In this document: positions 417 through 21,263 of the stretch, one piece after another
Layout of the letters: the number at the start of each line of letters is the position of its first letter
Position numbering within the stretch: position 1 is the first letter of the stretch
NCBI GenBank assembly: GCA_964611695.1
Contig: CAZTAR010000001.1
Coordinates: 1-49,482, forward strand
Source: an uncultured Planctomycetaceae bacterium
GTDB taxonomy: Bacteria > Planctomycetota > Phycisphaerae > UBA1845 > UTPLA1
Direction of reading: 5' to 3'
Length of the DNA: 49,482 bases
The notes under the pieces: model-generated
The model's input: only the letters and a program-made list of their open reading frames with translations
What the model was told of the DNA's origin: nothing
Databases searched by the model: none
Position numbers and translations under genes: made by a program

Positions 417-3400
417 CTAACCACCGCGTAGTTCAACTGCGAAGACTTGGGTATCGATGTAGCAGTCGGAGGAGAACATACTCTTTCCGATTTGGGAAAT
501 TTGCTCATTCTCCAGGTGTTCGGCAAGCAGGGGGACGGCGACAACAAACGCCAAGCGCAGCCAATCAGGAGGCGCCGAAGCGAACAACTCCAGGAACGAA
601 TACGCCACGTCCAACGCTTCCACCCGTTCCAGTCTCTGCTCAAGGCGCATCGCGGCAAGTAGAGCCTCCCGGGAGGCCTTAAACCGTTCCCGCTCACCCG
701 GGAGTTTCTGACACGCAGCCAGCAATCCCCTCACTTCTGCCAGCGTATCGACCTCGGCGCCCGCCGAGGACATTTCTCGGGCACACTGCACCAAGGCGTC
801 GGCTCGAACGTCGGCCAGTTCCAATTCGTCGATCATCTTGAGGGCTTGCATCGGATCGCGCTTCCACGTCTCCTTGGCGAATGCGGCCCCTATCGTAGCT
901 CGAGCCCAGAACTCTGGAGTTATCCGACGGATGTCCCCTGTCTCCGTGGCGCCGATTCCAGCAAGTGCTGTGCCCAGTGCCTCGGATATCTCGCTGCGGA
1001 ACATCCAATCATCATGGTTATCCATGATCCGCTGAACCGCCTTAACCACGTCTTGAATCGTCCCCGGGGACTCGGCTGCCATTCGAGCCAGCAACTGGCA
1101 CACCCGTTTGCCGATAGCGTCTTTCGTCCCGATGCGTTCCACGTGCGCGAAGACCCATGCGGGATCGTCCACGACAAGTTCATCAAAGAGGCCGAAGTCG
1201 TGGCCTTCGTCATCGTGGGCTGCGGTCGCCTCAACGAACCTCAGCGCACCCTCCCGGTCGACCCTCGCGAGAATGCGGACGAACATCTCCAACTCAAAGC
1301 ACTCATCCACCTTGAACAGGTCACTCTCGTTCTCCAGCTGGGTCACATCAGCCGCGCTGGCCAGCCGACATATGAGCTCGACGATCTCCGGTGTTGCGTG
1401 ACAGTCCTCCAGACCGACCTTCCAAAGACAACCAGCGAGTAGGTAGAGGTAGCGGACGGCCTCCGTTTCTCCTGCGGTGTTGTCTTCATCCCCACCGCCC
1501 AGCTGTGACGGTCGCCGACCGGCGCAATCCGTTGACTTCCACGGGGCACTTCGCAGGGTGTTGAGCAAGTGTTTGATGAGGGCCTGACGTCGTCGTCGCA
1601 GCTTCCGGAGCCGGGAGTGCGCATTGGGATCGGCCCCCATGGCCCTCAATCCATCCAAGTCCTCCACGATGCTGCGACAGGACTTGACGACAACGCGCGT
1701 GAGGCGCTTGCCGGGCGTCGAACGATTCACATCGTACTCAAGCTCGGCCAGACACAGCAAGACCTCCTGTATTGGCCGCCGCAACCTGGCCGAAATCTCC
1801 GGCGGGCATCCTCTGAGAAAGGCCATCTTCCCCAAGACGTATCCTATCCGCGTTAGCGATTGGAATAGCTCTTTGGGCAATTCACCGGCCTCTACATACG
1901 CAATCAACTCGCCCAGGCCTCGGCTCATCCACTGAAGGCAATCATCGAGATAATCGGGAAGGAACAACTCAGAGGCAACAAAAACACGCAGGATCGGCAA
2001 GAACCGTTTGAAATCGTCATCTTCCTCGCCGGCCGACTCCGCGGTTGACTCCACCCAGGGGAGCAGCCACTGACCGAAGTGCAAGCGGACCCGGGGATCG
2101 GCGGCGCGGACTTCCTCCAGCATAGCCAGGGAATCAACAAAGAACTCATCGGGGCCTGGGTACGAGCGCCCCCAGGCAGACAAGAGTTGCTCGACGAGCT
2201 GCGGTATGTTCCCGGGATACTCTGCGCCGCGAAGCAGAAGTTGTTCGACACAATGATGTGCCGCCGACGCCTGCAAGGGAGCAGTGCCGCCCCCGAAAAC
2301 AGGAGGTAAGTCCTGAGATGGATCACCTTTCGTGAGGAGTTGGATGATCGCCTCCGCCTCTTCGGTGCCGCTATCCTCGGGAAGGCCCGCCAGACTCGAC
2401 AGAAGGCCCGCCAGCGCCGTTCCCGCATCATCGGCTTTCATCCCCTCACACGAACCGCTTTTTCTCAGCATGATCGTAGCCAGTGAGTCATCGTGGCCCG
2501 CCGGCGCCAGCACGCGCTGCAGGAGTCTGCAGATCTCCAGGCGGATCCCGTGCCGCGGAGCGGAGGGCAGGCGGCACAAAAGGGGGTAGGCATCGAGAAT
2601 CAACGAAAACAGCTCACTGGCCGTCGCACCCGGCGAAACCGGCTCGGGGATCTCGGCGGCAGGGAAAAGCGATACGCCCAGAGCATCCTCTACCATGCGG
2701 CCGAGCACAGCGGCCGCCCGTCCGGGAGCGGTTCTGGCTCGCATTTCGCCGGCGTCCTGGGCTTTCATAAACTTCTCGAGCCCGTCAGAGGACAATCGCC
2801 GGGCCATTATCGTGCGGCCCAGGGACCGGCCCGCTGTCGATTCCATCATATCGTATAGCCGGAAAAGTAGGTCGATGCTACCCGCCGAGACCTTGTTCAG
2901 CAGCCCAAGTAAGAGCTCGTCACGCCGCCCATTCAGTCCTGGGAGAACTTCGAGCCCGTCGGCCAGAATCGGCGCCGCCGCGTCGGTCGTTTCGACATCC
3001 CATTGCTTAATTCGCTCCTTGAGAAGATCGCGAAACTCATTATACACAAGCAGACGTAGTTCGGCGGACTCGTGCTCTGTCTCTTCCAGGTGTCGTCGAT
3101 AGCCATCCAAGGTATGGGGCAGAAGGGCAACGTGCTCCAGTGTGGAAATATGTTCAAGAAGCCGCATACAGGCTTCAGCCTTCCCCAACACAGTGCGTTT
3201 TGTCAGGATTCGGTCATAGGCGATATCCGGGGCAACACGGGCGATCTCCCCGATGTGTTCGTAATCCAGCGCTTCTCCCGGTGACTGTGCTGAACGGGAC
3301 CATTGCTCAACGATGCCCAGGAGGACGTGCCAGCGCCCTACGGAGGCGTGATCAACGGTTTCAACAGTTTCCAAAACCGTTTTCAGTTGTTCAGCCTGCT

Positions 3401-6400
3401 CAACCGCATCTGAGAGACGCGCGATTCGTTCGATCGTCCCGTCAGGATCCCTTCTTATGGATTCCTTGAAGTGCTCCTCGCGGGCTGATTCAAGACAGCG
3501 ATCTCTCTCGGAATCATCAAGAGTGTCAAAGGCATCAACGAGCTTCTCGGCACGGGTCAGGTTCCTTCTCGCAACTTGTGATATGTAATCTCCCAACAGT
3601 CCGCATTTGTCGAAGTCGTCCAGCCCGACCAAGAGAGAGGTCACATGGTTCACAGTGATATCTGGAACCGACTCCAGAATCTCCGTCGCGACCATTCGCC
3701 GTTCGAAGGAATCCTCGATCTCCTGGATGATCTTGACGCCGGCATCGAACGACAGCCGTGCTGCCAGCTGAGCCCAAGTGCCCAGTGAATAATCAGGAGA
3801 ATCCTCCTCCAGCCCGCGCCCCTGAGCCCCAACGGCCTCGGCGATGATGGCCAACAGTTCATCTTTGTGTTCTCTGCCAAGTCGCCGGATGGCCGCCCCG
3901 AGCGCCTCTTCGCGCGACCCAGGGTTAGGCAGGGCCCTGATGGCCGCGATCGCCTCTTCCGCCGATATCTCCGGTGCCAACGAGATGTAATGGGAGAGCA
4001 GGCGACCTTGAGCCTCGGGAGTCGGCAGATGCCGGAGCAATGGGAGCGGCGAGGGAATCGCCACAGCCCATTCGGCGGCGGGGGATTCCATGAGATCGGC
4101 ATAGACCGCAGCCATCAGCGTCGCCTTCTCCACCCCTTCCGGCAGCGCGGCGATGGCGGCGATCGTCTCCTCCTTGCTCGCGCGCAACGAGACGCTTATC
4201 AGCGGTTTGACGATCCGCTCGGCGCCGTGGTGAAGTGAAAACCACTCCGCGATCGCTCTTCCAGGAGAGGATTTTGCCAAGTGGACAACATGGAAGAGTG
4301 CCGCATTCGTTGGCAAGCCGGCCGACTCAGGTCCGGTCTTTTGCTCCAGGAGCCATGACCAGACGCGGGCCTGCTCATCGGCGTGTGGGATGGCGGCACT
4401 CATGGCCAACCGCTCGAGAAAGTCCTGGAGGGCACTCTCGCGATCCTCTTCTGGAATCGCCGTGAGCATGTCCGGCAGCGGGCGCAGAAGGTCTAACGCG
4501 GCACGGCGATGACCCTGCGAGAGCAGCGCGAGAACCACCTCCGTGACCGACGACAGATCCTCATGCAGATCACCTAAGGCCTGCAGGAGGACGCATGCTG
4601 CGCGGGTGTCCTGCCTGGCCGCGCGCGGTACGACGTAGAGGCGGATGAACCTCTTCGTGCGACGGCCCAGCGATTCCCCGCGTGCGGCACACGAGTTCGT
4701 CAGGACCTTGATGTCAATTGGTTCACCCTCAACGAAGCTCAATGCCGAGACCATAACACCGAGGTTCTTGACCGCATCTGACTCCCGGTTCGCACATCGT
4801 TCCCACTCCCTGCGGGCGATCTCCAAGCCTTGCCTGGGGGAGGTTTCTGCGACCCGAACTGCGCAAATATGCATGGCCAGCGTTCGGCCCGCGTGTTCCT
4901 CCAGCAAGTCAAGGCTGCTTGACAATTGCTCCCAGAAGGCCTGTGGGGGGGCGAATGGATGCAGTCGAGTACATACCTCGCAGATCCGTACTGCCGTTTT
5001 CTCGGAGGCTTGCAAGTGGGCGAGGCGGTCGATGAGGGCGATGCCGACGCCAGGATCGCGCGGCCCCACATGCTCCGCGAAGGCCGCGCCGGCCATGAAG
5101 CGCGAGTCCTTTTGCGGAATCCCCTCCACCACATGCCGGGCGAGATCCACGTCCACGTCGGCCAGAGCGCACGCCACTGCCCCTTCATCGTGCCCGGTCG
5201 AGATGTAACCCGGTCTATTCGGCGCCAGGATCGCTGCGATTTCGCCGAAGGCCGCGAGGCGGTACTCCGCCGGGATATCCTGCAGCGATTTAGCCAAGGT
5301 CGAAGTCAGAGAGGCAATCTGCGACAGCGCGGTTTCGGACGGAGTCTCCTCTCGTCTCCCGGCCATTAAGTCTTGAACATCCTGAAGAATCGCCAGATGC
5401 CCTGACAGTAGCCCGAAAGCGGTTTTGAGGTTACTGTCACCAGCCCGCTCGGACCGCTCCTCATCATCGGAAACGCGCACTGTTTCTTGACACTGGTTGA
5501 GGTGCTCCATCGCGCGCCGCAGTAGAACGCGACCTTGTTCAGGGGCGCCGAGGCGATACCAGTTCGTCGCGAGCTTGATACCGCATTGTGTGGCCTGAAA
5601 CGAGTCCATGTTCTCGCTTGCCACGCGCTCAAGGTCCTGCAGTAATCGCCGACCGGCTGCAGGGGGCAAGGTTGTGGCGAGCTTGTTCAACGTCGTGAGC
5701 AGGCTGCGCACACGCTCGTGTCGCCCATCTGCATCTTCGACGTGCGATATTCTCTGCAGAACACCAGTCGTAAGCCGCGATATGATCTGTTCAATCTCCT
5801 GCTCATTCGAGCATAGCCGAATCGCCTCGCCAACGGCGCGGGCCTCGACCACGCCGATCTCACCGTCGGCTACCGAGCCGACTCCATCGCCCTGATAAGG
5901 CGCAGCCGCATTGTTTACTCTGACAGGTTCGGGATCGAGCAGGGCCTTAATGCAATCCGAAAACCGCTCGTCCGGACAGGCTGCCAGCCAGGCTTCAATG
6001 GCATGGAGGGCCCGCAAAAGCGACTCTTCTCTTGGATCCTCCCAATGAAGCTCAAGCAAGAGTGCAATTACAGTCTTCCATTGTGCTTCCGTCGCCTCCA
6101 GGCGCTCAGCAAGCTCAACCAAGCGCTCGAGACGCTGCCTTCGTTCAATGCTCGGCTCAGTTCCGCGTCCGATGGCGGCAATCGCGAGCAATGCATCTCC
6201 TCCCTCGCCCGCAAAGTATTCTCCGGCGGCACGAACTACCTGACGGGACAGCTGCTCCGCTGTATCCAAGTTCAACGGGGCGACTTGCTGCACAAGCAGC
6301 ACGTAGGCCACCACATGCTGGAACTCATCGGCTATGGAATCGGCCAGATCTGCGCATCGTTGGATCAGCTCTGCGGCACAGCTCTCGCTCACAAGACGGA

Positions 6401-7031
6401 CGGCGTACAGGGCGCGGTGAATGTGGTGGGCTCGCTGACCTTCGTTATCCATCCTCGATACGCAATCCAGAAGAGCGTCGGCGATCTCGCGTAGCGCGTC
6501 TTCATGGTCGCTGGAGACGTGGTGAAGGAGCATCGCCAGGATATCGAATGCCTCCCTCGGACTCCGACCGTAGACCGCGTTCGCAATGGCTTCGGAATAC
6601 AGCCCGCGATGCCCCAGGAGAACGACGAGCCCGACCTCGGCCCGGCGCACGCCCTTTTGCCACAACCTCGCACGAAGCCCCAGGCTCATCCCATACCGTT
6701 CGAGGTCGCCGCGGGCCCTGGCCGCCGTGCTGAGCAGGCGGACGTCTTCGAGCACCGGGAACACGGAGCGCAGGTGGACCGCCTTGGCCTGTAGGAATCG
6801 GCCTTCTACCAAGCGGCATAGTCTTTCGTAGTTGGCGACATCCTCGCGGCCCTCGAATAGGTAGGCGGAGAAGTGGTGGAGGGCCTCAGGGTCCCGGTGA
6901 GTTTCCCATTGTTGGTAGCATGCGATCAAGCCGCCGAGATAACTCCGACCGCTCCCATCTCGGCTGTCTTTTCGAAGGACGTGTGAAAAGTAACTCGCGT
7001 CCGCCGGTGGCGAATCGACTGTGGTGGTCAT
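417..7031 (-). CDS. Giant (2204 aa) all-alpha, Ala/Leu/Glu/Arg-rich solenoid-like protein; no enzymatic motif recognised
   Basis: Uninterrupted 6.6-kb ORF. Its ATG (7031-7029) overlaps the TGA of the upstream NTPase gene (ATGA). Composition is typical of HEAT/ARM/TPR-like helical repeats. No P-loop, signal peptide or TM segment seen. Confidence 0.85.
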   Translation of the reverse strand: MTTTVDSPPADASYFSHVLRKDSRDGSGRSYLGGLIACYQQWETHRDPEALHHFSAYLFEGREDVANYERLCRLVEGRFLQAKAVHLRSVFPVLEDVRLLSTAARARGDLERYGMSLGLRARLWQKGVRRAEVGLVVLLGHRGLYSEAIANAVYGRSPREAFDILAMLLHHVSSDHEDALREIADALLDCVSRMDNEGQRAHHIHRALYAVRLVSESCAAELIQRCADLADSIADEFQHVVAYVLLVQQVAPLNLDTAEQLSRQVVRAAGEYFAGEGGDALLAIAAIGRGTEPSIERRQRLERLVELAERLEATEAQWKTVIALLLELHWEDPREESLLRALHAIEAWLAACPDERFSDCIKALLDPEPVRVNNAAAPYQGDGVGSVADGEIGVVEARAVGEAIRLCSNEQEIEQIISRLTTGVLQRISHVEDADGRHERVRSLLTTLNKLATTLPPAAGRRLLQDLERVASENMDSFQATQCGIKLATNWYRLGAPEQGRVLLRRAMEHLNQCQETVRVSDDEERSERAGDSNLKTAFGLLSGHLAILQDVQDLMAGRREETPSETALSQIASLTSTLAKSLQDIPAEYRLAAFGEIAAILAPNRPGYISTGHDEGAVACALADVDVDLARHVVEGIPQKDSRFMAGAAFAEHVGPRDPGVGIALIDRLAHLQASEKTAVRICEVCTRLHPFAPPQAFWEQLSSSLDLLEEHAGRTLAMHICAVRVAETSPRQGLEIARREWERCANRESDAVKNLGVMVSALSFVEGEPIDIKVLTNSCAARGESLGRRTKRFIRLYVVPRAARQDTRAACVLLQALGDLHEDLSSVTEVVLALLSQGHRRAALDLLRPLPDMLTAIPEEDRESALQDFLERLAMSAAIPHADEQARVWSWLLEQKTGPESAGLPTNAALFHVVHLAKSSPGRAIAEWFSLHHGAERIVKPLISVSLRASKEETIAAIAALPEGVEKATLMAAVYADLMESPAAEWAVAIPSPLPLLRHLPTPEAQGRLLSHYISLAPEISAEEAIAAIRALPNPGSREEALGAAIRRLGREHKDELLAIIAEAVGAQGRGLEEDSPDYSLGTWAQLAARLSFDAGVKIIQEIEDSFERRMVATEILESVPDITVNHVTSLLVGLDDFDKCGLLGDYISQVARRNLTRAEKLVDAFDTLDDSERDRCLESAREEHFKESIRRDPDGTIERIARLSDAVEQAEQLKTVLETVETVDHASVGRWHVLLGIVEQWSRSAQSPGEALDYEHIGEIARVAPDIAYDRILTKRTVLGKAEACMRLLEHISTLEHVALLPHTLDGYRRHLEETEHESAELRLLVYNEFRDLLKERIKQWDVETTDAAAPILADGLEVLPGLNGRRDELLLGLLNKVSAGSIDLLFRLYDMMESTAGRSLGRTIMARRLSSDGLEKFMKAQDAGEMRARTAPGRAAAVLGRMVEDALGVSLFPAAEIPEPVSPGATASELFSLILDAYPLLCRLPSAPRHGIRLEICRLLQRVLAPAGHDDSLATIMLRKSGSCEGMKADDAGTALAGLLSSLAGLPEDSGTEEAEAIIQLLTKGDPSQDLPPVFGGGTAPLQASAAHHCVEQLLLRGAEYPGNIPQLVEQLLSAWGRSYPGPDEFFVDSLAMLEEVRAADPRVRLHFGQWLLPWVESTAESAGEEDDDFKRFLPILRVFVASELFLPDYLDDCLQWMSRGLGELIAYVEAGELPKELFQSLTRIGYVLGKMAFLRGCPPEISARLRRPIQEVLLCLAELEYDVNRSTPGKRLTRVVVKSCRSIVEDLDGLRAMGADPNAHSRLRKLRRRRQALIKHLLNTLRSAPWKSTDCAGRRPSQLGGGDEDNTAGETEAVRYLYLLAGCLWKVGLEDCHATPEIVELICRLASAADVTQLENESDLFKVDECFELEMFVRILARVDREGALRFVEATAAHDDEGHDFGLFDELVVDDPAWVFAHVERIGTKDAIGKRVCQLLARMAAESPGTIQDVVKAVQRIMDNHDDWMFRSEISEALGTALAGIGATETGDIRRITPEFWARATIGAAFAKETWKRDPMQALKMIDELELADVRADALVQCAREMSSAGAEVDTLAEVRGLLAACQKLPGERERFKASREALLAAMRLEQRLERVEALDVAYSFLELFASAPPDWLRLAFVVAVPLLAEHLENEQISQIGKSMFSSDCYIDTQVFAVELRGG

Positions 7032-8740
7032 GAACTTAACCCGGCCTTGTCGAGGAAATACTGCCGGAACCGCTCGTGGCAGAAGGTGAATTCCCCGCGA
7101 TGCTCCAACAGGAAGCGACGTATTCCCTGAATAGTCGCCTCAAAGTTAAGGTGATCAAGCCCCTCTACGCAAGAGATCAATGTTGCCCGACTGATGGGCC
7201 CCTTGGCAGTCAGGATGTAACCGAGGACATCACGCTGTTGCTGCCGTTGCGCGCAGCGACTCAAGATCTCGAACTGGGAATCGAGATAGTCGTAGAGGCC
7301 CTTGGGCGTCTCACCGATGTTCTCCGGGCCTATTCTCCCGGCGCGGATGTCCTCGGCCAGGAATCGCAAATAGAATGGATCTCCATCGGTCGTGGCGAGC
7401 AAGGCTCCCACAAACCGTTCGTTCGCCGACCATTCTACGGCATCCCCGCCCGCCTTCCTCAGCAAGGCGGCGACGCCCCCGGAATCGAAGCGATCCAGGG
7501 TGATGGTCAGGGCGATGTCCGAGGCAGTCAAACCGACGTGGCGAACGAAACTGCGATCGCCGATGGTGCGGGCCGAGAACACGACGAATGTGCGCGCCCC
7601 CAGATCATGAGGGAAGAGGCCCTTAAGGAAATTGCGAGTGGGATCAATCTCGTCCACCGCGTCGATGATGACAATCCGGCATGTCTCCGGTGGAAGGGGC
7701 TCTGCCAGCAAGACGAGGTAGGCTGCACGGGGATCGGCTTCTGGGATTCTTTTCTTGGAGGCGGACTTGCGCAGAATCTGCCCGCAGAGATTGCGCAGGA
7801 AGCAGGTCTCGCGGTTCGGATCGAAAAGGACTGTTGTGCCAGAAAGAGACTGGTTGAAGAAGTGGTATGCTGCATGCGGATAGCGTTCGGTCAGTTGGGC
7901 CAATAGCGCAGTCTTGCCGAATCCGGAGGGGCCTTCGACAAAGACATAGGCACCGTCGGAGCTCGAGAGACGGTCATTGATTGTGGTGAGTTCCCCCACT
8001 CGCCCGGCGAATGCCGCAGAGTGGTAGGCGATCGAATCTGCGAAGTGGATCTCCGTCTCGGCTGTAGATGCCCAATCGTCTCGCGGGAGTGGCGGCCGCG
8101 ACTCCTCTCTGTCGCTTGGCTGCCCTTTCTTGGCTGCGGACTGGTTCGAGTCAAACGTAACCGAGTCTGCTCCAGCCGACGCAGAATGACCCATCGGCTT
8201 CCCGCACTGCAACTCTATCTCAGAAGCCATGTTTTCGAGTTCATCGGCACTCTCCACCGGCGCGCGATCGAGCACAATTTGGATCGCCTCGGGAGGGAGA
8301 GCATCCACGTCCACGCACAGCACAACAGGCTCGCCGGGGAGCGTCTTGAAATCGGGGTTGCTGCGGTTGATCAAGAACACGATATTCGATCGGTCGTTGG
8401 CGTCCGTCCCGAACATACCGCCCAACCAGGACGTTGACTTGCTTATCGCGTAGTTCAGCGAGGCGGCCGGACTCCCGTGCCAGCCTTCAACAACAGGAAT
8501 CTTGTCTTCACGCTCATCAGGACAGCGGCGTCCCCACGCCGCTGAGCGAAGCAGAAGAACGGCAAGGGCCTTCACAGCAGAAGTCCACTTGAAAGACCCA
8601 GCCGCATCGGAGCTCGCCCCCACATCATCCCCCCGCACGGCTCGTAGCTGGCGGTCTTTGCCAAGTACGGGGTGCTCAAATGTTGTCTCCACAAGCTGCG
8701 GTGAGGGATTGCTTGTGAACGAGAGCACGAGTCTTTTCAT
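7028..8740 (-). CDS. STAND (NACHT/AAA_16-like) P-loop NTPase with an unknown ~260-aa N-terminal domain and no C-terminal repeat sensor
   Basis: Walker A is VFVEGPSGFGKTALLAQL and Walker B is RIVIIDAVDEID. FVVFSAR, GDPFYLRFLAED (a GxP-like STAND motif) and a terminal winged-helix-like LGYILTAKGPISRATL...FCHERFRQYFL follow. I prefer the start at 8740 (MKRLVLSF), which has GGAGG 7-8 nt upstream, over the track start at 8773. Confidence 0.85.
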   Translation of the reverse strand: MKRLVLSFTSNPSPQLVETTFEHPVLGKDRQLRAVRGDDVGASSDAAGSFKWTSAVKALAVLLLRSAAWGRRCPDEREDKIPVVEGWHGSPAASLNYAISKSTSWLGGMFGTDANDRSNIVFLINRSNPDFKTLPGEPVVLCVDVDALPPEAIQIVLDRAPVESADELENMASEIELQCGKPMGHSASAGADSVTFDSNQSAAKKGQPSDREESRPPLPRDDWASTAETEIHFADSIAYHSAAFAGRVGELTTINDRLSSSDGAYVFVEGPSGFGKTALLAQLTERYPHAAYHFFNQSLSGTTVLFDPNRETCFLRNLCGQILRKSASKKRIPEADPRAAYLVLLAEPLPPETCRIVIIDAVDEIDPTRNFLKGLFPHDLGARTFVVFSARTIGDRSFVRHVGLTASDIALTITLDRFDSGGVAALLRKAGGDAVEWSANERFVGALLATTDGDPFYLRFLAEDIRAGRIGPENIGETPKGLYDYLDSQFEILSRCAQRQQQRDVLGYILTAKGPISRATLISCVEGLDHLNFEATIQGIRRFLLEHRGEFTFCHERFRQYFLDKAGLSS

Positions 8741-8979
8741 CTTCGGCCTCCAGCCTGACGCCCTTCCAGACACGCGGGGGCTACCTCAACCCGGCTTCTG
8801 AATCCACTTCTGAATCTGAAACCACTTCGGCATCGCTCGGCGACTCATGTCTGGGTGGTTCCTGCTTTACTTGCCGCTAGCGGTTCAGAAACGCCGGTGC
8901 GCAAGACAGCATCAAGGAGTGTCTTGACCATGATCGCCGATGAAATGGCCCAGGCTAGACGAACAAGAGGAACTCGACA

Positions 8980-9540
8980 ATGGGAACTTTGACAGAAGGC
9001 ATCCCTCCTGGAGGGGGCATGCGGTGCGTGAGATTGCAGACAAGGGAAACGGCGCTCCAGCCGACCGAACAGAGGGCACCTCACACGGCTGCGATTGCCG
9101 CCTCCGACTCGCCGGAGTCTGGCTCTGTTGGGGCGCGTAAGCCCATTCGCTGTGGTGGGCACCCAAGCTGGCAGGCCCTGCCATTTGAAGCAGACGAGAG
9201 TGGCGGCGTGAGCCGAGGCTTCGTGTTGACCCGCGCCGGCAAGGCGTACGGGGGCACGCTCACCTGCTGCGTGCACAACCGTCTAGCGCGGTTGGAGGTC
9301 AAAGTGGGGCACGCAAACCCCGTCTCGGAGCAGCAGCTGAACATCCTGCTCCGAATCCAAGAACGGTCCAAGCTGAGCCGAGCAAGGTGGGATCGTGAGG
9401 ACGGGATGGTCACGGTACAGGCCACGACGATCCTCTTTCATTCTGACGAGATCGAGTTCGTCATTGGCGAGCTTGCAGACGACATCAGACAGGCGCTTGA
9501 AGACGACCGTTGGCCGGGCGTGTTCGCTGAACCCCGATGA
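8980..9540 (+). CDS. Hypothetical protein; C-terminal half resembles the YbjN/T3SS-chaperone-like fold
   Basis: ORF with GAGGA about 9 nt upstream. The C-terminal segment LNILLRIQERSKLSRARWDREDGMVTVQATTILFHSDEIEFVIGELADDIRQAL looks like YbjN-family sequences. The N-terminal half is low complexity, so the start is uncertain. Confidence 0.4.
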   Translation: MGTLTEGIPPGGGMRCVRLQTRETALQPTEQRAPHTAAIAASDSPESGSVGARKPIRCGGHPSWQALPFEADESGGVSRGFVLTRAGKAYGGTLTCCVHNRLARLEVKVGHANPVSEQQLNILLRIQERSKLSRARWDREDGMVTVQATTILFHSDEIEFVIGELADDIRQALEDDRWPGVFAEPR

Positions 9541-9580: not shown

Positions 9581-9805
9581 ATGGAACGCAATGAGAGCCA
9601 GCAGTTGAGCTTCGAGTTGAAGCATTGGGACGGCCATGCAATGAAGACCCAACCTGTCAGTGCCGAGGAGATTCGAGTCATTGACCGGAACATCGCGGAT
9701 TATTTCATCTCCTCGTGCCTTCGCGTTCTCTCTTTCCTAGTGGCATCCGGGGAGAGTCTCGAGCTTGCGGGCCGATGGCCAGGCATCGGCCGCGTCGGCT
9801 TCTAG
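9581..9805 (+). CDS. Small hypothetical protein (74 aa)
   Basis: AGGAG lies 8 nt upstream of the ATG, and third-position GC is moderately high. No recognisable domain. Confidence 0.3.
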   Translation: MERNESQQLSFELKHWDGHAMKTQPVSAEEIRVIDRNIADYFISSCLRVLSFLVASGESLELAGRWPGIGRVGF

Positions 9806-10407
9806 ATCATTCGGGCAATTCAATCACAGCCGGGTGTGTATCTCGGCCCCATGGAGCTGACTCTCCTGACGGAGGAGGAGAGCCTCCTCGATACGGCCAA
9901 TCTCGCAGCCCGGATCTACACACTGCGCAAGGCACATTGTGAGACGAAAGAGATCGCGCATTTCTTCCTCACGCCTGATACCGGGAGCATCGCGCTGACT
10001 TGGCCCGCACACCTGACGTGGATGTCGCTCGATGTGCTGCCAGTAGCCACCGATGCAGCTTCGCAAGGGCCATGTTCCTCTGTACAACCAGCTTCATGAT
10101 CTGGTCGCGCGGATCGCTGTGGTCGTCCAAGCCAAACGTGGCCGCGAGAGTGTGGCAGCGAACGCATCCCCGGATGACGCAGACAGAGAGCAAGCAGAAG
10201 TTGCTGAGTTGTCATGGCTCCGTCAGTGGACTTTGACGCCTTGTTGGCAGAATAGATGGGCCGGGCGATGTTCCGCAACCGGTTTCGTCGCGCACCCAGG
10301 AGCCCTCCACATGCCCAGAAAAAAAGAGGAAAACAGAAACAGTGCAGGACTGGCCGTCGTGCCGTACCGACCGGTGGTATTCCCTGCGCGTCACATCCAT
10401 CAGCATC

Positions 10408-10917: not shown

Positions 10918-11364
10918 ATGGCACAGCCCAACCTGAATGCAGCGCCGATCACTCGGTCGGTGGAGACCATCATCCGAGGCCCTGACGGGATGGAAATCCT
11001 GCGCGTCTGCGCCAAGCACATCACCATCCGCCATCCCGACGGCCGCATCGAGCAACGAAAACTCAACGAGAACATCGTCCTCGTCGACGGCACCAACTGG
11101 AATGCCGGCATGCTCTACGGCCCGAATCCCATTGAGATTGGTGCGTGTCATCTCTGTCGACGACCGCCGTACGTGTTTCCCCTGCATGATCCGCCATGCG
11201 ACGGACTTCTCCGCCTGTCCAATGCCGAAACCTGCGAATGCGGAGCGCTTTGCTGCGGCAAGCACCGCCGCCTGTGTTCAGATGGCGAGTATCGTTGTAC
11301 TCGATGCGCCCGATGGTGGTTCTGGCTGGAACTGCTCAGCAGGATCTTCTTTTGCAGGTGGTAG
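10918..11364 (+). CDS. Cys-rich (multi Zn-ribbon-like) protein with a Trp/Phe-rich hydrophobic C-terminus
   Basis: C-terminal half reads CHLCRR...PPCDG...CECGALCCGKHRRLCSDGEYRCTRCARWWFWLELLSRIFFCRW. The stop lies 6 nt before the ATPase ATG. Confidence 0.6.
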   Translation: MAQPNLNAAPITRSVETIIRGPDGMEILRVCAKHITIRHPDGRIEQRKLNENIVLVDGTNWNAGMLYGPNPIEIGACHLCRRPPYVFPLHDPPCDGLLRLSNAETCECGALCCGKHRRLCSDGEYRCTRCARWWFWLELLSRIFFCRW

Positions 11365-11370
11365 CCCGCC

Positions 11371-13479
11371 ATGAAAAACACGGCGCAAGCCAGGCAGCTT
11401 TGGCGGGTCATCACGGACCTGAATCTCGATGCCCGCCACTCGGAACTTGCTGATTACAAGTTGCTGATCGAACAGGGCCTCCTCGAAGATGACATCGCAC
11501 AGGACATCATGCTTCAAATCGATCCTCTGATCCGGCACGCGCAGGATCACCCCAATCCACTGAAGCGACCACCGAGCCAGGAAGAGCTGTACGGCGACGA
11601 GAGTCCCTGCCTCGAGCTGGGCTCGATCCTGGATGCCTCCGAGATTCGTTTCGGACTGCGGATCCGGGACCGCCCCAGGAATGTGCTGATTGCCGGGAAC
11701 GCCGGCTCCGGAAAAACAACGACCATGTATAACATCGTGGAAGGCGTCCGTGCCTTCAACCTCGCCAACCCAAACCGATTCGTCAGCCTTGTCATCAAGG
11801 ACACCAAGCTCGACTACCGCCGACTTGCCGAGGCTCTTCGCAGCTCCCTGGTTCATCTCAGTGTGCACGATCCCGGAACTCAGTTGTCACTGGCCGCGCC
11901 CGAAGGTGTGCCAGCGAACGTCTGGATCAATCTCCTGTCAGCGATCTGGTGCTCGCGGAGTGGCATAGTCTCTGGCTGGACCGCCTTTGCGAATTTGATC
12001 CGTTGGGTGCTTGCGCAACTGACCCCGAAACCCGGCACCCAACTGCTGTGGCCGAGCCTGAAGCTGCTCTTGGAGATCATGCAAGCCTCGCCGAAGCAAC
12101 TGTGGGGATCCAAACAGGGCTACGAGGAGACGCTGATCGGCGTACTCGAAGCGGCGGCGCAGGCCACGGAGCTGTTCGACTGTTTCGGCGGTCTGGACCT
12201 CGAGCGGGACATCATCCGGCCCAAGAAACACCTCCTGCTTGAGATGCCCAACGTCGCGCCCGCGTGGCTCCGGCAGTTCATCCTTGATCTTCTCATCGCA
12301 CAGTTGCTCTTCGGCAGGATCCACCGCCGCCAGAAAACCGACCGCACGGAGCTGATGCTCATGCTGGATGAAATGGATCAGGACGCACGCGCAGACGCCG
12401 ATCTCCGTTTTCCGGATCAAATGTCACCGCTGGCCCAATTGCTCCGGCTCGGGCGAGAGTTCGGCATCATGGCGGTCATCGGTCTGGGCAGACTGAATAA
12501 CGCAAGTCACTACGTCCAATCCGAGCCCCTTTACCACTTGATCTTCAATCAATCGGACGCGCACTCGGTTGTGGCAGCGCGGAACACGCTCTGCCTACCG
12601 CCGGAGGCGGATCAGATGTTTCCGTCCTTGACGCCAGGCCATTGCATCGCCCGCGAAGCGCAGGGCCCCTGGTCGCATCCGATGCTGGTGAAGATCGATC
12701 ACCGGCCGCTGGGAGGATCAACACCCGTACCGGCATACGACACCCACCCGATGATTCCCGCGCAGAGCCTGGCCGAACTTCCCGAACTCCGGAAGGCCCT
12801 CGAAGCACTCATTAGCGAAAAACGCAAGACCAACTTGCGACAAAGCAGGAGCAAGTCCGCTGAGCTATCCGAACACGCCCACAATCTCCTGAATACGGCA
12901 TCGCTTCATCCCTGGGCGCCTGCCGCCACACTCTGGAGGCGTTCTGGCAAAACCCCATCTCCGAGGATTCAGAAGGCTGTCCGGCGGGAACTTCTTCAAG
13001 CGGGCCTAGCCGATTCGGAAGAAGTTCGTTTGGGAAGCACAAACGTGCTGCTCTATTCCATCACAACTCAGGGTTGGGCGTATCTCAGGCGACAAGGCCC
13101 GAAGCGCACGGGTCGCGGATCAATCTCCCACCAACACATCAGTCATTGGATTGCCCTGTGCGGAGAAAAGGATGGGCTCACCGCTTCCTGCGAATTCGTG
13201 GTGCCCGACACCAATCACGCAGTCGACTGCGCTGTTGAGATTGAGCCCGGCGTCTGCAACGTATTCGAGGTTGTCGTCACATCGAAGGACAACATCCTGC
13301 AGCATCTCACGACATTGGCCACGTGCGAGTGTGTTCGCACGATCGCCATCGTGTGCCTGCAGAAGCGACAAATGCGGGCCATTCGACGCTCGCTTGAGCC
13401 TGAGCCGGTGGTCAAGAACTTAGGCGACCGGCTGCAATGGCAGCTTGCTGAAACCTACATGCGGAGGTGTTTCTCATGA
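11371..13479 (+). CDS. HerA/FtsK/T4CP-like P-loop ATPase with a C-terminal winged-helix plus possible PD-(D/E)xK-like nuclease module
   Basis: Walker A is RNVLIAGNAGSGKTTTMYNIV and Walker B is ELMLMLDEMDQDA. The GREFGIMAVIGLGRLNN block is typical of HerA/FtsK-type ATPases. The tail has a wHTH-like stretch (KAVRRELLQAGLADSEEVRLGSTNVLLYSITTQGWAYL), then ISHWIALCGEKDGL...VDCAVEIEPGVCNVFEVVVTSKDN. No TM segment. Confidence 0.85.
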   Translation: MKNTAQARQLWRVITDLNLDARHSELADYKLLIEQGLLEDDIAQDIMLQIDPLIRHAQDHPNPLKRPPSQEELYGDESPCLELGSILDASEIRFGLRIRDRPRNVLIAGNAGSGKTTTMYNIVEGVRAFNLANPNRFVSLVIKDTKLDYRRLAEALRSSLVHLSVHDPGTQLSLAAPEGVPANVWINLLSAIWCSRSGIVSGWTAFANLIRWVLAQLTPKPGTQLLWPSLKLLLEIMQASPKQLWGSKQGYEETLIGVLEAAAQATELFDCFGGLDLERDIIRPKKHLLLEMPNVAPAWLRQFILDLLIAQLLFGRIHRRQKTDRTELMLMLDEMDQDARADADLRFPDQMSPLAQLLRLGREFGIMAVIGLGRLNNASHYVQSEPLYHLIFNQSDAHSVVAARNTLCLPPEADQMFPSLTPGHCIAREAQGPWSHPMLVKIDHRPLGGSTPVPAYDTHPMIPAQSLAELPELRKALEALISEKRKTNLRQSRSKSAELSEHAHNLLNTASLHPWAPAATLWRRSGKTPSPRIQKAVRRELLQAGLADSEEVRLGSTNVLLYSITTQGWAYLRRQGPKRTGRGSISHQHISHWIALCGEKDGLTASCEFVVPDTNHAVDCAVEIEPGVCNVFEVVVTSKDNILQHLTTLATCECVRTIAIVCLQKRQMRAIRRSLEPEPVVKNLGDRLQWQLAETYMRRCFS

Positions 13480-13784
13480 ACGTGAAGGCATTGCAGATTG
13501 GCCTCATTCTGATCCTGATGCTTGCCGTGCTCACATGGATGCGGTCGGAGGGCAGGTACGACTTCGATATCCGGTCCGTGATCCCGTTCATGCACGGCGA
13601 GGTGACGCTGTACGACTGGGGCGGATTGGCGATCATTCTCTTCGGCCTCTGGGGACTTGGCCGGCTTCGGGACAACGTGCCGCGGTCCGACAGGGAACGG
13701 GATTCTGACTTCGACGTCGTCGGACGAGGCGAACAAGGGCGTCCCATTGACCCCGAAACGGATGGCCGTGGGTACCGGTTGTAG
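13476..13784 (+). CDS. Small two-TM membrane protein
   Basis: The ATG at 13476 overlaps the ATPase stop (ATGA). Sequence MNVKALQIGLILILMLAVLTW...GGLAIILFGLWGLG, followed by a charged tail. Confidence 0.5.
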   Translation: MNVKALQIGLILILMLAVLTWMRSEGRYDFDIRSVIPFMHGEVTLYDWGGLAIILFGLWGLGRLRDNVPRSDRERDSDFDVVGRGEQGRPIDPETDGRGYRL

Positions 13785-13944
13785 CGTGCGATGCACGGCA
13801 CCCGCCTCTCCGGTCTCCCGAGAGGATTCGTCAGCCTCTTGTCACCGGGATGGTGCCCGGAAGATCACTCCCGAGTCATTGAGAAGGCAACGGGATTCGC
13901 TGGAAGTTGAGTAAGTTGTACGTGGCTTTGAAGGAGATCGACCC

Positions 13945-14247
13945 GTGCGCAACGAACTGAGGCCAGGGCCTCGCTTTCAGATGCAACAAGGGCCCGTCCT
14001 TGAACGACCCAAGCCGCAACGGCGGCGGCCACGACCGTTCCGGTGGTACTTCCTTGCGCTGCCTTTGCTCGTGTTCGCAATCGGCTGGGTCGCTCAGGGC
14101 ATCCATCCAGCCTGCACCTGGGATGAAGTGATGGACCAACTTGACATTAGGGATCGCGAGGCGTTCACGCAGATGGCCGCACTCGGGGTTCTGGTCACGT
14201 CAGGGCTTGCGGTTCTGCGCGTGCTGCGCGGGCCTGGCGAGAGATAG
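13945..14247 (+). CDS. Small membrane protein with an Arg/Pro-rich N-terminus
   Basis: GTG start with AAGGAG 8-9 nt upstream. TM segments are FRWYFLALPLLVFAIGWVAQGI and MAALGVLVTSGLAVLRVL. Confidence 0.45.
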   Translation: MRNELRPGPRFQMQQGPVLERPKPQRRRPRPFRWYFLALPLLVFAIGWVAQGIHPACTWDEVMDQLDIRDREAFTQMAALGVLVTSGLAVLRVLRGPGER

Positions 14248-14336
14248 ATGCTTCCATCTTCCCGCTTGGATTATGCCAGAATCTGAGTGAAACAAAGTAA
14301 TGAACCGTGTCGAACGACGGAGACAAGGAGACAAAC

Positions 14337-15068
14337 ATGAAACATCCAGAGAACACACCATGCCTCCAGTCCGGAACTAGTGAGGAGGATGATCCGTCCG
14401 CAAGAGTTGTTTCCCACGAAAGCGAGGAACCCGAATCGCTACTCACCAAAACTGAGGATCTCTTCGCTGACAACGATCCTGAAGATGGTCTGTTCGGCCA
14501 TATCAGTTCCGTCCTCGGCGATCTTGGCGAGCGACTGACGCAGTGCCAAACCAAGATCGAGTCGATCAGTACGGAAGTGCAGCGCATCAAGACGGACGAT
14601 GAAGTTCTCAACGAGATGAACCACCGCTGTCAGATTTTGTCCGAGCAGTTCCACGAACGAGAAGTACTCAATCCAATCCTACTGATCTTGATCGGCGTGG
14701 CCGATCGTTGTCGCACTCTCGAGTCGGGAATAGAGAGTGTTGTTGCCAAACTGGAGGCCAAGCCGCGCTCATTCAAAAAGACGCTCCTTCGACAGTTGCT
14801 GGACGCCAGACGGGCGGACAGGGTCGAGATCGAGAGCGCACTCGCCGACCTTGGCGTCCAGAGCTACGAGCATCCAGGAGGAGTATTCACATCCTCGCTC
14901 CAGACTTGCAAGGGCAGTATTTCGTGCAGCGATTTTGCTCAGAAAGGGCGAATCGCCAAGCGGCTGCGCCCTGGCTATCGACGAAACGAGCACATCATCC
15001 GGCGTGAATGCGTGGCGGTGTTCGTCACGCGTGAAGCAAAACCTCTATGCGAAGGAGAAGAACAGTGA
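14337..15068 (+). CDS. GrpE-like nucleotide-exchange-factor homolog (divergent)
   Basis: ATG at 14337 with AAGGAG 6 nt upstream. Acidic N-terminus, then a long coiled-coil region. ILLILIGVADRCRTLESG matches the GrpE LLpvlDnleRAl block. C-terminal beta-domain signature is ADLGVQSYEHPGGVF...GRIAKRLRPGYRRNEHIIRRECVAVFV (compare GrpE qkGYklgdRvlRpAmVvV). Confidence 0.65.
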   Translation: MKHPENTPCLQSGTSEEDDPSARVVSHESEEPESLLTKTEDLFADNDPEDGLFGHISSVLGDLGERLTQCQTKIESISTEVQRIKTDDEVLNEMNHRCQILSEQFHEREVLNPILLILIGVADRCRTLESGIESVVAKLEAKPRSFKKTLLRQLLDARRADRVEIESALADLGVQSYEHPGGVFTSSLQTCKGSISCSDFAQKGRIAKRLRPGYRRNEHIIRRECVAVFVTREAKPLCEGEEQ

Positions 15069-16615
15069 TCGCATTCGACATTGGTACTGAGCGTTCAAAG
15101 GCCGCTTGTGTAAACCGGCTTGGCAAGCCAGAGATGATCCCCAACGCCCGAGGTGAGCCCTTTACCCCCAGCGTAGTGTGCCTCTCCGAAGGTGGTCCGC
15201 CGCTGGTGGGAAGGGATGCGCTTGAGCAAGGATACGTCCATCCGGAGAGAACAGCCCGGAACTTCAAGCTCAAGCTGGGAACGACTGAGAACATCCTGAG
15301 GAACGGCAAGACCGTGACCGCCACAGACGCCACGGCAGAACTCGTCGGTCGCTTGAAGGAAAATGTCGAAAGCCATCTGGGTGTTCGGCTTGAAGAACTC
15401 GTAGCCACGTGTCCCGCCAACTTCCGGGACGCGGCCAAACAGGCCCTCCTTGAGGCGTTCGATCGCCATGGCATCAAAGTCTCCCAGCTTGTCCACGAGC
15501 CCACGGCAGCCGGCCTCGCCTACGCTCTTGATAAGTCGGGTAGCACCCTTCACATTGCAGTCTATGACTTTGGAGGGGGAACGTTCGACGTCTCTATCCT
15601 GAAGGTCGAAGGTCCCCAGATAAGCGTTCTCGCAACAGAGGGTGTTGCCCAACTTGGGGGCAACGACATCAACGCCTGCCTGCGTCGCCACATCCTGAAT
15701 GAGATCAAGGTGCGCACCGGCGAAGACATTACCCTGGGACAAGATTCTCTATTCGACATGGATCTTGATACGCGCGTGGAAGCCGCCAAGCTCTCACTCG
15801 GCACAAGGCCACAAGTGCCTGTCGCGATCCACCGCAATGGAAATCAGCTGATCGTGGACATCAGCCAGGATCAACTTCACCGAATGATCGATCCACTCAT
15901 TCGACAAACGCTCGACGCACTCGATCACGCCATCGATGCAGCCGGGCTTAAGGCGGATCAGGTCCAGGACATCCTAATGGTAGGTGGTACTTCTCGCCTC
16001 AAGCACATTCAGGGCCAGGTGGCTAAGCACATCGGTAAGGCGCCGAAAATCGACATCGACCCCGACAAGGCTGTAGCCTACGGCGCCGCCATCGCCAGCC
16101 TCAATGAGTTGTACCGCCAGGGCAAGACTGCCACCATCCGTGGCCAGATCATCCCTTCACCGGACCTGTTCGTACGAGAGGTCACTGCACACGCAGTCGG
16201 TTGCTGTGTCGTGGACACATCCGGCCCCCAGCGGCGCATGCTCAACGCAGCGATCATTGCAAAGAACACACAGATCCCCTGCCGCAAGACCGATCGGTTC
16301 TACCTCGAGCGAGCGGATCAGGCGCACGCCAAGGTTGAGATCCTCCAAGGTGAGCCGGATGCGGACCGAGATGAATGCCTCGTCATCGGCGAGCTTCTCT
16401 TGGAGAACCTACCATCCGAACCCAATCGCTCGGCCCGCATCCAAATCGAGTACTCCATCGACGGCAATGGCATGGTCACGGCCACGGCAACCGACATTGT
16501 GAGCGGACAGATCAGGACTGTCTCCGTGGACTACAAGAGGGATGCCTCTTCACCAGGCGCATCGACGAACACCGGCGGCAAAACAACTGTCACCATCAAT
16601 AAGGAGGTCGCCTGA
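15065..16615 (+). CDS. Hsp70-family ATPase, non-canonical and lacking the helical lid (HscC-like length)
   Basis: Motifs VIAFDIGTERS, VHEPTAAGLAY, YDFGGGTFDVSIL, MVGGTSRLKHIQ and DPDKAVAYGAA. Beta-sandwich SBD motifs are REVTAHAVG, VEILQGE and IEYSIDGNGMVTATATD. The protein ends about 516 aa with a short Ser/Thr/Gly tail. The GTG at 15065 has AAGGAG 7 nt upstream and overlaps the upstream stop (GTGA). An alternative ATG lies at 15047. Confidence 0.9.
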   Translation: MIAFDIGTERSKAACVNRLGKPEMIPNARGEPFTPSVVCLSEGGPPLVGRDALEQGYVHPERTARNFKLKLGTTENILRNGKTVTATDATAELVGRLKENVESHLGVRLEELVATCPANFRDAAKQALLEAFDRHGIKVSQLVHEPTAAGLAYALDKSGSTLHIAVYDFGGGTFDVSILKVEGPQISVLATEGVAQLGGNDINACLRRHILNEIKVRTGEDITLGQDSLFDMDLDTRVEAAKLSLGTRPQVPVAIHRNGNQLIVDISQDQLHRMIDPLIRQTLDALDHAIDAAGLKADQVQDILMVGGTSRLKHIQGQVAKHIGKAPKIDIDPDKAVAYGAAIASLNELYRQGKTATIRGQIIPSPDLFVREVTAHAVGCCVVDTSGPQRRMLNAAIIAKNTQIPCRKTDRFYLERADQAHAKVEILQGEPDADRDECLVIGELLLENLPSEPNRSARIQIEYSIDGNGMVTATATDIVSGQIRTVSVDYKRDASSPGASTNTGGKTTVTINKEVA

Positions 16616-17346
16616 TGTACGACAACGCCGTACGGAGGACACTCACGAGTGTGCAGTCGATGCCTGTAGCTCTGGTGATGATGATCGTCTCAGGTATCAC
16701 GCGCTTCCTCGACGAACTCTTTGGCCAGATCGATGGTTGTGGGGAGGCGGAAGAACTGGGATATCGAGGTCGACCAGACGGCCCCTGCGATTGCGTGGTT
16801 CTTATCGATGCTTCACCTTCGATGATGGAGGCGGATTGGAAGCCGACGCGCTTGCGTGGAGCCAAGGACGCAGCCAAGGCCTATGGCAAGAGGATTGCCC
16901 GGAATGACCCGGAATCTCGCATTGCCATCGTCGCCTATGCGGCATTCGCTCGAAAGGCCATTGGGCTCACGGCCGCCCACCAGTGTGCCAAGCTCTGCGA
17001 CGCGATTGATCAGATTGACACATTCAGTGCCACGAACATCACATCGGCCCTGAAGAAAGCCAATCGCCTCCTCCGGAAAGGACGTGGAAACCACCAGGTC
17101 ATCCTGCTGACGGATGGTCACCACAACTTCGGTGTTTCCCCGCGACGAGCCGCTGCAAAGCTGAGGCGGCACGCGATCCTCGAATGCGTAGGCATCGGCG
17201 GCCGGGAGGGAGTTGACGAGGAGCTTCTCAGGGCCATCGCTTCGACCAGGCGAGATGGGACAAAGCGATACCGCTGGATTGGTGACCCCGAAGACTTGAT
17301 CGAACACTTCGAGAATCTCGCAGAAAGGATTACTAGACAGGCATGA
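16615..17346 (+). CDS. von Willebrand factor A (vWA) domain protein with a complete MIDAS and a hydrophobic N-terminal helix
   Basis: VVLIDASPSMM (DxSxS), SATNITSAL (Thr) and VILLTDGHHN (Asp). N-terminal MPVALVMMIVSGITRFL. AAGGAGG lies 7 nt upstream, and the start overlaps the Hsp70 stop (TGATG). Confidence 0.85.
   Translation: MYDNAVRRTLTSVQSMPVALVMMIVSGITRFLDELFGQIDGCGEAEELGYRGRPDGPCDCVVLIDASPSMMEADWKPTRLRGAKDAAKAYGKRIARNDPESRIAIVAYAAFARKAIGLTAAHQCAKLCDAIDQIDTFSATNITSALKKANRLLRKGRGNHQVILLTDGHHNFGVSPRRAAAKLRRHAILECVGIGGREGVDEELLRAIASTRRDGTKRYRWIGDPEDLIEHFENLAERITRQA

Positions 17347-21187: not shown

Positions 21188-21263
<76 letters not shown>

Follow-up and report, generated by a model that had tools for sequence, protein, structure and literature searches.

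In the usual account of STAND proteins (signal-transducing ATPases that have numerous domains) and of NLR proteins, the sensor controls the nucleotide-binding oligomerisation domain (NOD) by covalent, intramolecular autoinhibition, which is exerted through the arm and the sensor domains. Whether such control can also be divided between two proteins is the question raised by a locus in a 49,482-nt stretch of DNA from an uncultured Planctomycetaceae bacterium (assembly GCA_964611695.1, contig CAZTAR010000001.1; the whole stretch is called the window here), in which one gene encodes an NTPase of 570 amino acids (aa) and the next gene a helical giant of 2204 aa. An earlier note on this DNA, made from the sequence alone, had proposed that the two form a STAND machine of two polypeptides with a separately encoded repeat partner, and the present analysis bears this out in that the genes are linked in all ten comparable loci, the giant is homologous at its N-terminus to a part of a one-piece STAND protein, and both proteins have diverged together. 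What has been observed comprises the domain anatomy, the strict gene linkage, the co-divergence, a fused relative with homologous parts and the swapping of N-terminal domains, and on this basis we regard the pair as a two-polypeptide, NLR-like STAND signalling module on an integrative island, with a probability of roughly 60%. The sequences support the view that a STAND unit has been divided between its winged helix and its arm, the first gene probably contributing output and switch and the second gene arm and giant solenoid.

Two genes that meet in a stop codon

Both open reading frames (ORFs) lie on the minus strand at the positions first given. The NTPase gene (7028..8740, -) starts with ATG at 8738-8740 and ends with TGA at 7028-7030, and the giant gene (417..7031, -) starts with ATG at 7029-7031, inside that stop codon, and reads on to 417, the stop and the start overlapping in the sequence ATGA (7028..7031, -) that had been noticed before. 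Such an overlap implies that translation of the two genes is probably coupled. An in-frame GTG at 8773 would be an alternative start of the NTPase but is an unlikely one, the 570-aa form being favoured because a ribosome-binding site, GGAGG (8747..8751, -), lies 6 nt 5' of the ATG. The NTPase was characterised by ORF and translation, Pfam, PADLOC, AlphaFold2 (AF2) and Foldseek, the giant by its ORF and by colinear homologs beside homologs of the NTPase. GC by codon position is coding-like throughout both ORFs, including the orphan N-terminal region of the NTPase, and since the window giant is colinear over its full length with the giants of loci L004 and L006, at 33% identity, chance ORFs can be dismissed.

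A complete switch with nothing after it

The core of the NTPase, aa 232-570 (7031..8047, -), is delimited by its motifs, by the AF2 model and by the homologs, whose identity is limited to this part. All three motifs quoted in the earlier note are found in the translation, namely Walker A GPSGFGKT at aa 270-277 (7910-7933, -), Walker B VIIDAVDE at aa 357-364 (7649-7672, -) and GDPFYL of helical domain 1 (HD1) at aa 453-458 (7367-7384, -), and they are followed by a winged-helix domain (WHD; ~7040-7297, -) that contains CHERF (aa 554-558) and is recognised by motif and model. Within Walker B, D360-A-V-D-E364 conforms to the NACHT signature D[GAS]hDE (bioRxiv 10.1101/2022.07.19.500537). In Pfam, AAA_16 matches above its cut-off (35.1 against 32.6 bits), while NACHT (PF05729; 22.9 bits) stays under its gathering score of 26.7, NPHP3_N (23.1 bits) under 24.8 and ATPase_2 likewise slightly under its cut-off, and there is a weak TANC1-type winged-helix match at aa 501-566. 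The PADLOC model of Avs1b aligns to aa 251-567 (E=1.8e-6), and a PDB sequence search with the NTPase gave no significant match.

The AF2 model, for which 11 sequences were used with the relatives trimmed to their cores, has a pLDDT (predicted local distance difference test) of about 85-94 over aa 232-570 and gives a confident core of nucleotide-binding domain (NBD), HD1 and WHD, in which a P-loop domain of five strands and helices is followed by the helical domain and this by the winged helix. The final helix spans aa 556-565 and the chain ends about five residues later; as this last helix belongs to the winged helix, the NTPase is a complete NOD with nothing after it, just as had been read from the sequence. 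The top Foldseek matches of the core in the PDB are ZAR1, Roq1, Avs3, RPP1, NRC4, NOD2, CED-4, MalT and Avs4, and ORC/Cdc6 and RuvB come next after these STAND structures. The NTPase thus has the NBD with Walker A and B of a STAND protein, and the HD1 (with its GxP motif) and the winged helix with a conserved His, but a sensor or repeat region on the same polypeptide is missing and the repeat region is the next ORF.

The giant: an arm-like start, a solenoid and a polar patch

The giant has no match in Pfam (E up to 1), NCBIfam, PADLOC or, searched with a profile of the giant, among PDB sequences. For aa 1-660 (5052..7031, -), AF2 on a six-sequence alignment gives an all-alpha solenoid of the TPR/HEAT type, built of hairpins and with 32 helices (pLDDT 79.7, predicted template modelling score 0.65). 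With this model, Foldseek finds generic TPR/HEAT/ARM solenoids in the PDB at low TM-scores (Ski3, transportin-3 (TNPO3), TTC7B, APC subunits, LGN TPR) and no enzyme fold, and in its architecture the modelled solenoid is like the sensors of TPR/HEAT type in Avs and NLR proteins. In most defence STANDs the sensors are TPR-like alpha-repeats (PMC13581612). The giant had been described as uninterruptedly alpha-helical, which holds in the model for aa 1-660, whereas past residue 660 an all-alpha structure is suggested by composition only, which is uniform along the giant, with about 50% strong helix formers.

The protein can be divided further. An arm-like segment at aa 14-150 (6582..6992, -) comes first, and conservation in the giant family is highest at residues 100-340, a stretch that contains a patch of polar residues (6318..6464, -): C190, D195-N-E-G198, A201-H-H-x-H-R206, A210-V-R212, C226 and D235-E-F237. 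These are strictly invariant in all six or seven aligned family members and sit on consecutive modelled helices with a pLDDT above 90. The region of aa ~661-1333 (3033..5051, -) is dispensable. It is missing from the L001 giant, which is split into ORFs of 687 aa and 905 aa (11604-16407; a form seen on 14 contigs), and aa ~668-1252 are missing from the L009 giant (2689-7662), which is a single ORF of 1657 aa, and as the loss has different boundaries in the two, the region can be considered a separable module. L010, a close relative of L001, keeps it; its giant (2656-8457; 1818 aa) breaks near aa 1765-1890 and is continued by a second ORF. The C-terminal region, aa 1334-2204 (420..3032, -), is kept in all full-length relatives and is colinear in BLASTP with the second ORF of L001 (gB) and with L009, L004 and L006, at ~30-37% identity.

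The earlier note had seen no catalytic motif in the giant, and no known motif has been found, but the invariant Cys/His/Asp/Glu cluster qualifies that statement. The patch could be where the NOD docks, or it could bind a metal or be catalytic. An invariant cluster (C190, DNEG195-198, AHHxHR201-206, C226, DEF235-237) within an otherwise fast-evolving protein, together with the loss of the middle third in some relatives, might even point to an inverted or otherwise different division of roles, with the giant as an effector or an assembly scaffold that has a metal or catalytic patch, and the N-terminal domains of the NTPase serving in sensing or as adaptors. We consider this quite unlikely, because for aa 1-660 Foldseek returns generic solenoids and no enzyme fold, the giant has no family or PDB sequence match, a patch close to the arm-like N-terminus fits a surface for NOD docking equally well, and the CHAT and PNP domains found at the N-terminus of some relatives (see below) are known effector domains, not sensors.

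The two genes occur together in all ten loci

A search for homologs of the NTPase returned ten proteins of 437-616 aa, with 54-60% identity over the NOD only, and because of these lengths all ten must end at the winged helix as well. Wherever a locus has downstream sequence and an NTPase homolog with 54% identity or more, a homolog of the giant lies directly 3' of the NTPase (10/10 loci, the window counted), and the loci come from independent samples. The giant has 2202 aa in the Aminicenantes metagenome-assembled genomes (MAGs) of L004 and L005 and 2226 aa in L006, and it takes the shortened or broken forms described above in L009, L001 and L010, whereas in L012 (a Pirellulales MAG), L016, L017 and L018 the contigs end within the giant. 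The adjacency on which the earlier note had asked for a survey is thus the rule, and all six giant-family clusters of the protein search described below are among the linked cases.

The two genes meet in different ways. The junctions are ATGA with a 4-nt overlap, TAATG with a 1-nt overlap and an overlap of 8 nt, and elsewhere the genes are separated by 10, 1 or 13 nt. Relative to the NTPase, the giant is read in a frame shifted by +1 or +2, an offset of 0 does not occur, and no slippery site precedes the stop codon of the NTPase. A programmed frameshift or a read-through that would fuse both ORFs was considered and is ruled out by the inconsistent offsets and the lack of a slippery site. As the junctions differ and the frames are never the same, the split must be old and real and cannot be explained by an assembly error or by a conserved frameshift, which agrees with what had been proposed for the window. 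One may still object that the window comes from a metagenome-type contig in which a neighbouring gene has an in-frame stop, and that the giant itself is broken into two ORFs in L001 and continued by a second ORF in L010, so that the split could be an artefact of assembly or of a frameshift, or the pair a decaying pseudogene of a one-piece STAND. This is hardly credible for ten independent loci that have the same protein boundary behind six junction sequences, with offsets of +1 or +2 and no slippery site. The two proteins are moreover conserved from end to end.

The giant family is very rare. When giant aa 1-660 were compared by phmmer with 1.84 billion representative proteins, only six clusters of the giant family were found, each of which matches from its own residue 1-14, and all six are linked to this NTPase and none is fused to it. 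Pattern scans over 185,579 genomes that represent species, and over JGI metagenomes, yielded two loci each, only in Aminicenantes and Pirellulales. A word-index homolog search with the whole giant returned the giant itself only, and one with the N-terminal family alignment of the giant returned nothing. The exhaustive phmmer search and the scans of genomes and metagenomes thus speak for a very rare family in which there is no close fused form.

Where both proteins can be compared, they have changed in parallel. Across the 10 loci, pairwise identity in the NOD and pairwise identity in the N-terminus of the giant are correlated (r=0.95), and over the six long pairs the mean identity is 61% for the NOD and 38% for giant residues 1-650, from which it follows that the NTPase and giant genes have been inherited together while the giant has diverged much faster. 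This difference is the pattern that would be expected of a conserved switch with a diversifying sensor.

A one-piece relative shows where the cut lies

A single distant relative is a one-piece protein, and the question of fused versions has a mixed answer for that reason, close fused forms being absent. This protein, P0018 (1506 aa), was the seventh match of the exhaustive phmmer search (E=4.3e-4 for the whole library) and contains an XRE-HTH domain, a NOD and a helical region in one chain. Its aa 141-468 are 37% identical to aa 232-567 of the window NTPase, and its aa 458-590, directly after the winged helix, align to giant aa 14-150 (hhalign 97%, E=9e-11), while the rest of P0018 (aa 590-1506) has no detectable similarity to the giant. 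Given this homology, the N-terminus of the giant corresponds to the post-winged-helix segment of a one-piece STAND, and the split lies inside what is normally a continuous STAND protein. In MalT-type proteins this position is that of the "arm", which holds the NOD closed (PMC4381067, PMC6468293).

At the junction, the C-terminus of the NTPase, RFRQYFLDKAG (7040-7070, -), and giant aa 14-24, YFSHVLRKDSR (6960-6992, -), both align to P0018 aa 458-468. The similarity is weak and hints at a short duplication at the site of the gene split.

Detached repeat partners are not limited to the giant. A distant relative with a CHAT-NB-ARC architecture, P0011 (locus L007), has a NOD with 30% identity and is followed by a gene for a 130-aa protein and by a pair of separately encoded WD40 proteins (821 and 829 aa), which means that such partners recur in this clade. 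The P0011 set (L007 5354-16923) resembles a further case of a split STAND, in surroundings like those of a defence island, and is flanked by genes for AAA_15/AAA_21 ATPases, one of which is paired with DUF4276.

The N-terminal domain is exchanged between relatives

In front of its core, the window NTPase carries an orphan domain of about aa 1-175 (8216..8740, -), in the position of a swappable output domain, and a low-complexity linker at aa 176-231 (8048..8215, -) that is rich in S, A, D, E and P, has a pLDDT below 50 and is probably disordered. What had been taken for one domain of 260 aa is thus a domain of ~175 aa and a linker of ~55 aa, although it remains true that nothing recognisable matches it. 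In the NTPase family, at least six unrelated classes of N-terminal domain are found: the orphan of the window, an XRE-HTH domain (P0002, P0007, P0009), a helical domain (P0003), a CHAT protease (in the L004 variant; PADLOC 'chat', E=1e-13), an orphan of 190 aa (P0005, P0006, P0008) and a PNP-type nucleosidase (in the L009 variant; PADLOC 'Effector, PN-superfamily', E=1e-18). The exchange can be followed most closely between L010 and L012, where the NODs are 86% identical and the N-terminal domains are different.

A constant switch with a shuffled N-terminal domain is a familiar pattern of STAND conflict systems (PMC7159879; PMC13581612), and judged by the sequences, the swapping in this family is the usual pattern of STAND output domains. 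The early suggestion that the N-terminal domain could be the effector or an adaptor gains from the fact that relatives with near-identical cores carry CHAT, PNP, XRE-HTH or orphan domains in that place.

How the pair might work

If the pair is a divided STAND unit, the first gene would provide a NACHT-like switch of NBD, HD1 and WHD behind an exchangeable N-terminal output domain, and the second, by coupled translation with the first, the arm-like segment (aa 14-150) and the very large TPR/HEAT-like solenoid. With its conserved N-terminal region, including the invariant Cys/His/Asp/Glu patch, the giant would attach to the NOD non-covalently, and the docked giant would keep the NOD closed and ADP-bound. 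Inhibition would then be lifted when the fast-evolving solenoid binds a ligand, for which a protein from a phage or another invading mobile element is the likeliest candidate, and the released NOD would exchange its nucleotide and oligomerise, by which the clustered N-terminal domains would be activated. Sensing of a ligand by the giant, oligomerisation and a function in defence are attributed to the pair by analogy and may be considered plausible in that sense. As the family has kept the cut between winged helix and arm through a long divergence, the same control must work between two chains.

Such a pair would be a natural system for studying which contacts are enough for autoinhibition and its release, whether sensors can be mixed with switch and output halves, and how a trigger is recognised by a solenoid of 2,200 residues. 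Three orphan N-terminal domains in the output position are a further contribution of the family, as is a companion gene for a protein of ~150 aa, and its members come from the poorly studied phyla Acidobacteriota/Aminicenantes and Planctomycetota.

Relation to known STAND systems

The nearest known systems by NOD profile are the Avs proteins, Avs1b in particular. They share the NBD-HD1-WHD switch, exchangeable N-terminal effectors such as proteases and nucleosidases, an alpha-repeat sensor of very large size and residence on mobile islands; the alignment to the Avs1b model of PADLOC extends across the entire NOD, and Avs3 and Avs4 are among the top Foldseek matches. Unlike the window pair, however, Avs proteins have effector, NOD and sensor on one chain, whereas the sensor-like half is a separate protein here, the score against Avs1b is far under the family cut-off, and the giant has no relatives in known families. 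In Avs1 the effector nuclease acts in trans (PMC12799240), and neither a trypsin-like protease nor an MBL nuclease partner was found in the N-terminal domain of the window NTPase or in the neighbouring genes.

The bNACHT or NACHT clade is similar with respect to the Walker B sequence, DAVDE fitting D[GAS]hDE, to NACHT and NPHP3_N being among the best Pfam matches, to the WHD and to the diversity of N-terminal effectors, but the window protein is under the Pfam threshold of NACHT and a conserved second gene supplies its C-terminal half. One-piece proteins with XRE-HTH, STAND and helical parts (P0018; PADLOC 'STAND_TPR') have a homologous NOD (37%) and a homologous segment behind the WHD, and MalT and AfsR share the logic of an arm plus TPR. 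All of these are single chains, however, and the window NTPase has no HTH. P0011 of L007 is alike in that a distant relative of the NOD ends after its core and is followed by separate repeat proteins, but these are beta-propellers that are not homologous to the giant, and a 130-aa gene intervenes.

A division between recognition on the one hand and switching or execution on the other, on two polypeptides, is also known from the sensor/helper pairs of NLRs and from guard-type recognition in plants and animals. There, the partners are each a full NLR, or an unrelated protein of the host acts as the guardee, whereas the window pair is a single NLR-like unit that is cut between WHD and arm. In the literature that was searched, there is no account of a conserved STAND of the NOD-only kind whose giant solenoid has a gene of its own; the nearest mention is that of "split proteins" met in another STAND family, in the methods of PMC13581612.

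A divergent operon and the question of regulation

On the other side of the NTPase gene lies a gene (8980..9540, +) for a protein of ~150-186 aa, divergent from the NTPase and a frequent third companion of the pair. Neither this linkage nor the island is mentioned in the earlier note. Homologs directly 5' of the NTPase, on the strand opposite to it, are found in L001 (9104-9580), L010 (164-673), L012 (1142-1603), L016 (133-585), L017 (115-561) and L018 (3-245). The window protein is 19-25% identical to them, and the family has no match in Pfam or NCBIfam and no significant match among PDB sequences. The family may be reminiscent of YbjN or of type III chaperone-like proteins, although no such relationship is claimed here. 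The protein may be a third component of the system. Behind it follow a gene of a 165-aa type (9581-10099, +; detected by tblastn and BLASTP) with an in-frame TAG at 9803-9805, which could reflect a pseudogene, an error of sequencing or a site of read-through, a gene for a 148-aa protein of a 151-aa type (10918-11364, +; 32% identity to L001), and a gene for a P-loop ATPase of 702 aa that is HerA/DUF87/TrwB-like (11371-13479, +; 34% identity to L001). In Pfam and NCBIfam the small neighbouring proteins had no match, and the ATPase only weak ones of the P-loop and DUF87 type (DUF87, TrwB, AAA_16). The 165-aa-type, 151-aa-type and ATPase genes are common to the window and L001, and L012 has the first two. 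It is uncertain whether they belong to the module, and the 148-aa gene and the ATPase may form a module for transfer or replication of the island, or a different system. As L004 and L009 carry the pair without the divergent operon, it is the pair that is the constant unit.

This arrangement leaves room for a regulatory role, in which the pair would be a non-immune signalling or transcriptional switch of a mobile element that senses a cue of the cell or of the element and regulates the divergent operon, similar to regulators of the MalT/AfsR type. Regulators of the STAND class that combine an arm with a TPR sensor are well established (PMC6468293, PMC4381067), and there are weak matches to PADLOC 'STAND_TPR', which combines XRE-HTH, ATPase and TPR. 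Such a regulator is nevertheless unlikely, because near-identical cores carry CHAT or PNP domains, which are typical cell-killing or proteolytic outputs and not domains for binding DNA, because L004 and L009 have no divergent operon, because no DNA-binding domain was detected in the window NTPase with Pfam, and because in the window a stop disrupts the 165-aa gene but both genes of the pair are intact. Variants with CHAT or PNP, and the setting on an island, favour a role in defence or conflict.

Several observations weigh against a divided, defensive STAND unit. An XRE-HTH domain in three close relatives and in the fused P0018, and the ~150-aa gene that lies head-to-head with the NTPase in 7/9 loci with upstream sequence, part of a larger operon common to the window, L001 and L012, fit a regulatory role too, and PADLOC recognises no known defence system beside the pair in the window. 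For the N-terminal domain of the window NTPase, no match turned up in Pfam, PHROGs or PDB sequences, nor by tblastn in plasmids or phages, and AF2 gives no usable model of it (pLDDT <50). The NCBIfam model of Avs1b, NF041810, scores 18.1 bits with a curated cut-off of 1500. As to the giant, the modelled part amounts to 30% of the protein (aa 1-660), and comparison by hhalign of seven segments of the family alignment found no internal repeats, all pairs having a probability below 10%. The case of the fused relative comes down to a single protein with ~135 matching residues, and that the NTPase and the giant bind each other is supposed by analogy to Avs, NLRs and MalT.

Alternatively, the pair could be the core of a larger, as yet undescribed machine of several proteins, with the giant as a hub, a patch that binds a metal or cofactor or is catalytic, and with the ~150-aa protein and possibly the operon of the HerA-like ATPase as further parts. 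We regard this as improbable; if it were true, switches that differ in output could share a detachable solenoid or exchange it.

The island and its other genes

The two-gene STAND module probably lies within an integrase/tRNA-Pro island of at least 21 kb. One border is formed by a tyrosine recombinase gene (19953 to ~21185, -) that abuts a tRNA-Pro (21188-21263, -). Between these and the start of the window lie a radical SAM gene, a GrpE/Hsp70/vWA operon, the HerA-like ATPase with its small ORFs, and the pair, and housekeeping genes start beyond the tRNA-Pro, none being found between the recombinase and the pair. As no attachment (att) repeat of the 3' end of tRNA-Pro is present inside the window, the far end of the island should lie beyond the contig, past position 1. 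The Aminicenantes pair likewise adjoins an integrase and a radical SAM/B12-binding gene.

The GrpE-like (14307-15068, +), Hsp70/DnaK-like (15047-16615, +) and vWA (16615-17346, +) genes have overlapping ends and form a chaperone-like operon of a non-housekeeping kind within the island. About 180 nt downstream of the giant, a small gene (15-236, -) that is cut by the end of the contig is 69% identical to a 91-aa gene after the L001 giant. It is more conserved than the pair, has a diverged paralog in the island (17815-18063, +) and no family match; the 91-aa protein may resemble PC4-like proteins, although this is not claimed either.

Further observations concern the rest of the window. A 1739-aa ORF (29754-34973, +) is rich in Cys/Asp/Asn in the form of a "DACD/DCN" motif and has no match in Pfam or PADLOC; it was compared with the giant, and a relationship between the two was rejected. 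An Rfam match to sR17, an archaeal C/D-box sRNA (24735-24786, +; 37.7 bits, slightly over the gathering score of 36), lies inside a bacterial HDAC-like gene and is probably due to chance. The Acido-Lenti-1 RNA motif, which suggests a host similar to Acidobacteria or Lentisphaerae, occurs twice in opposite orientation, at 37292-37337 (-) and 37448-37493 (+), flanking the end of the ORF at 37475-39466.

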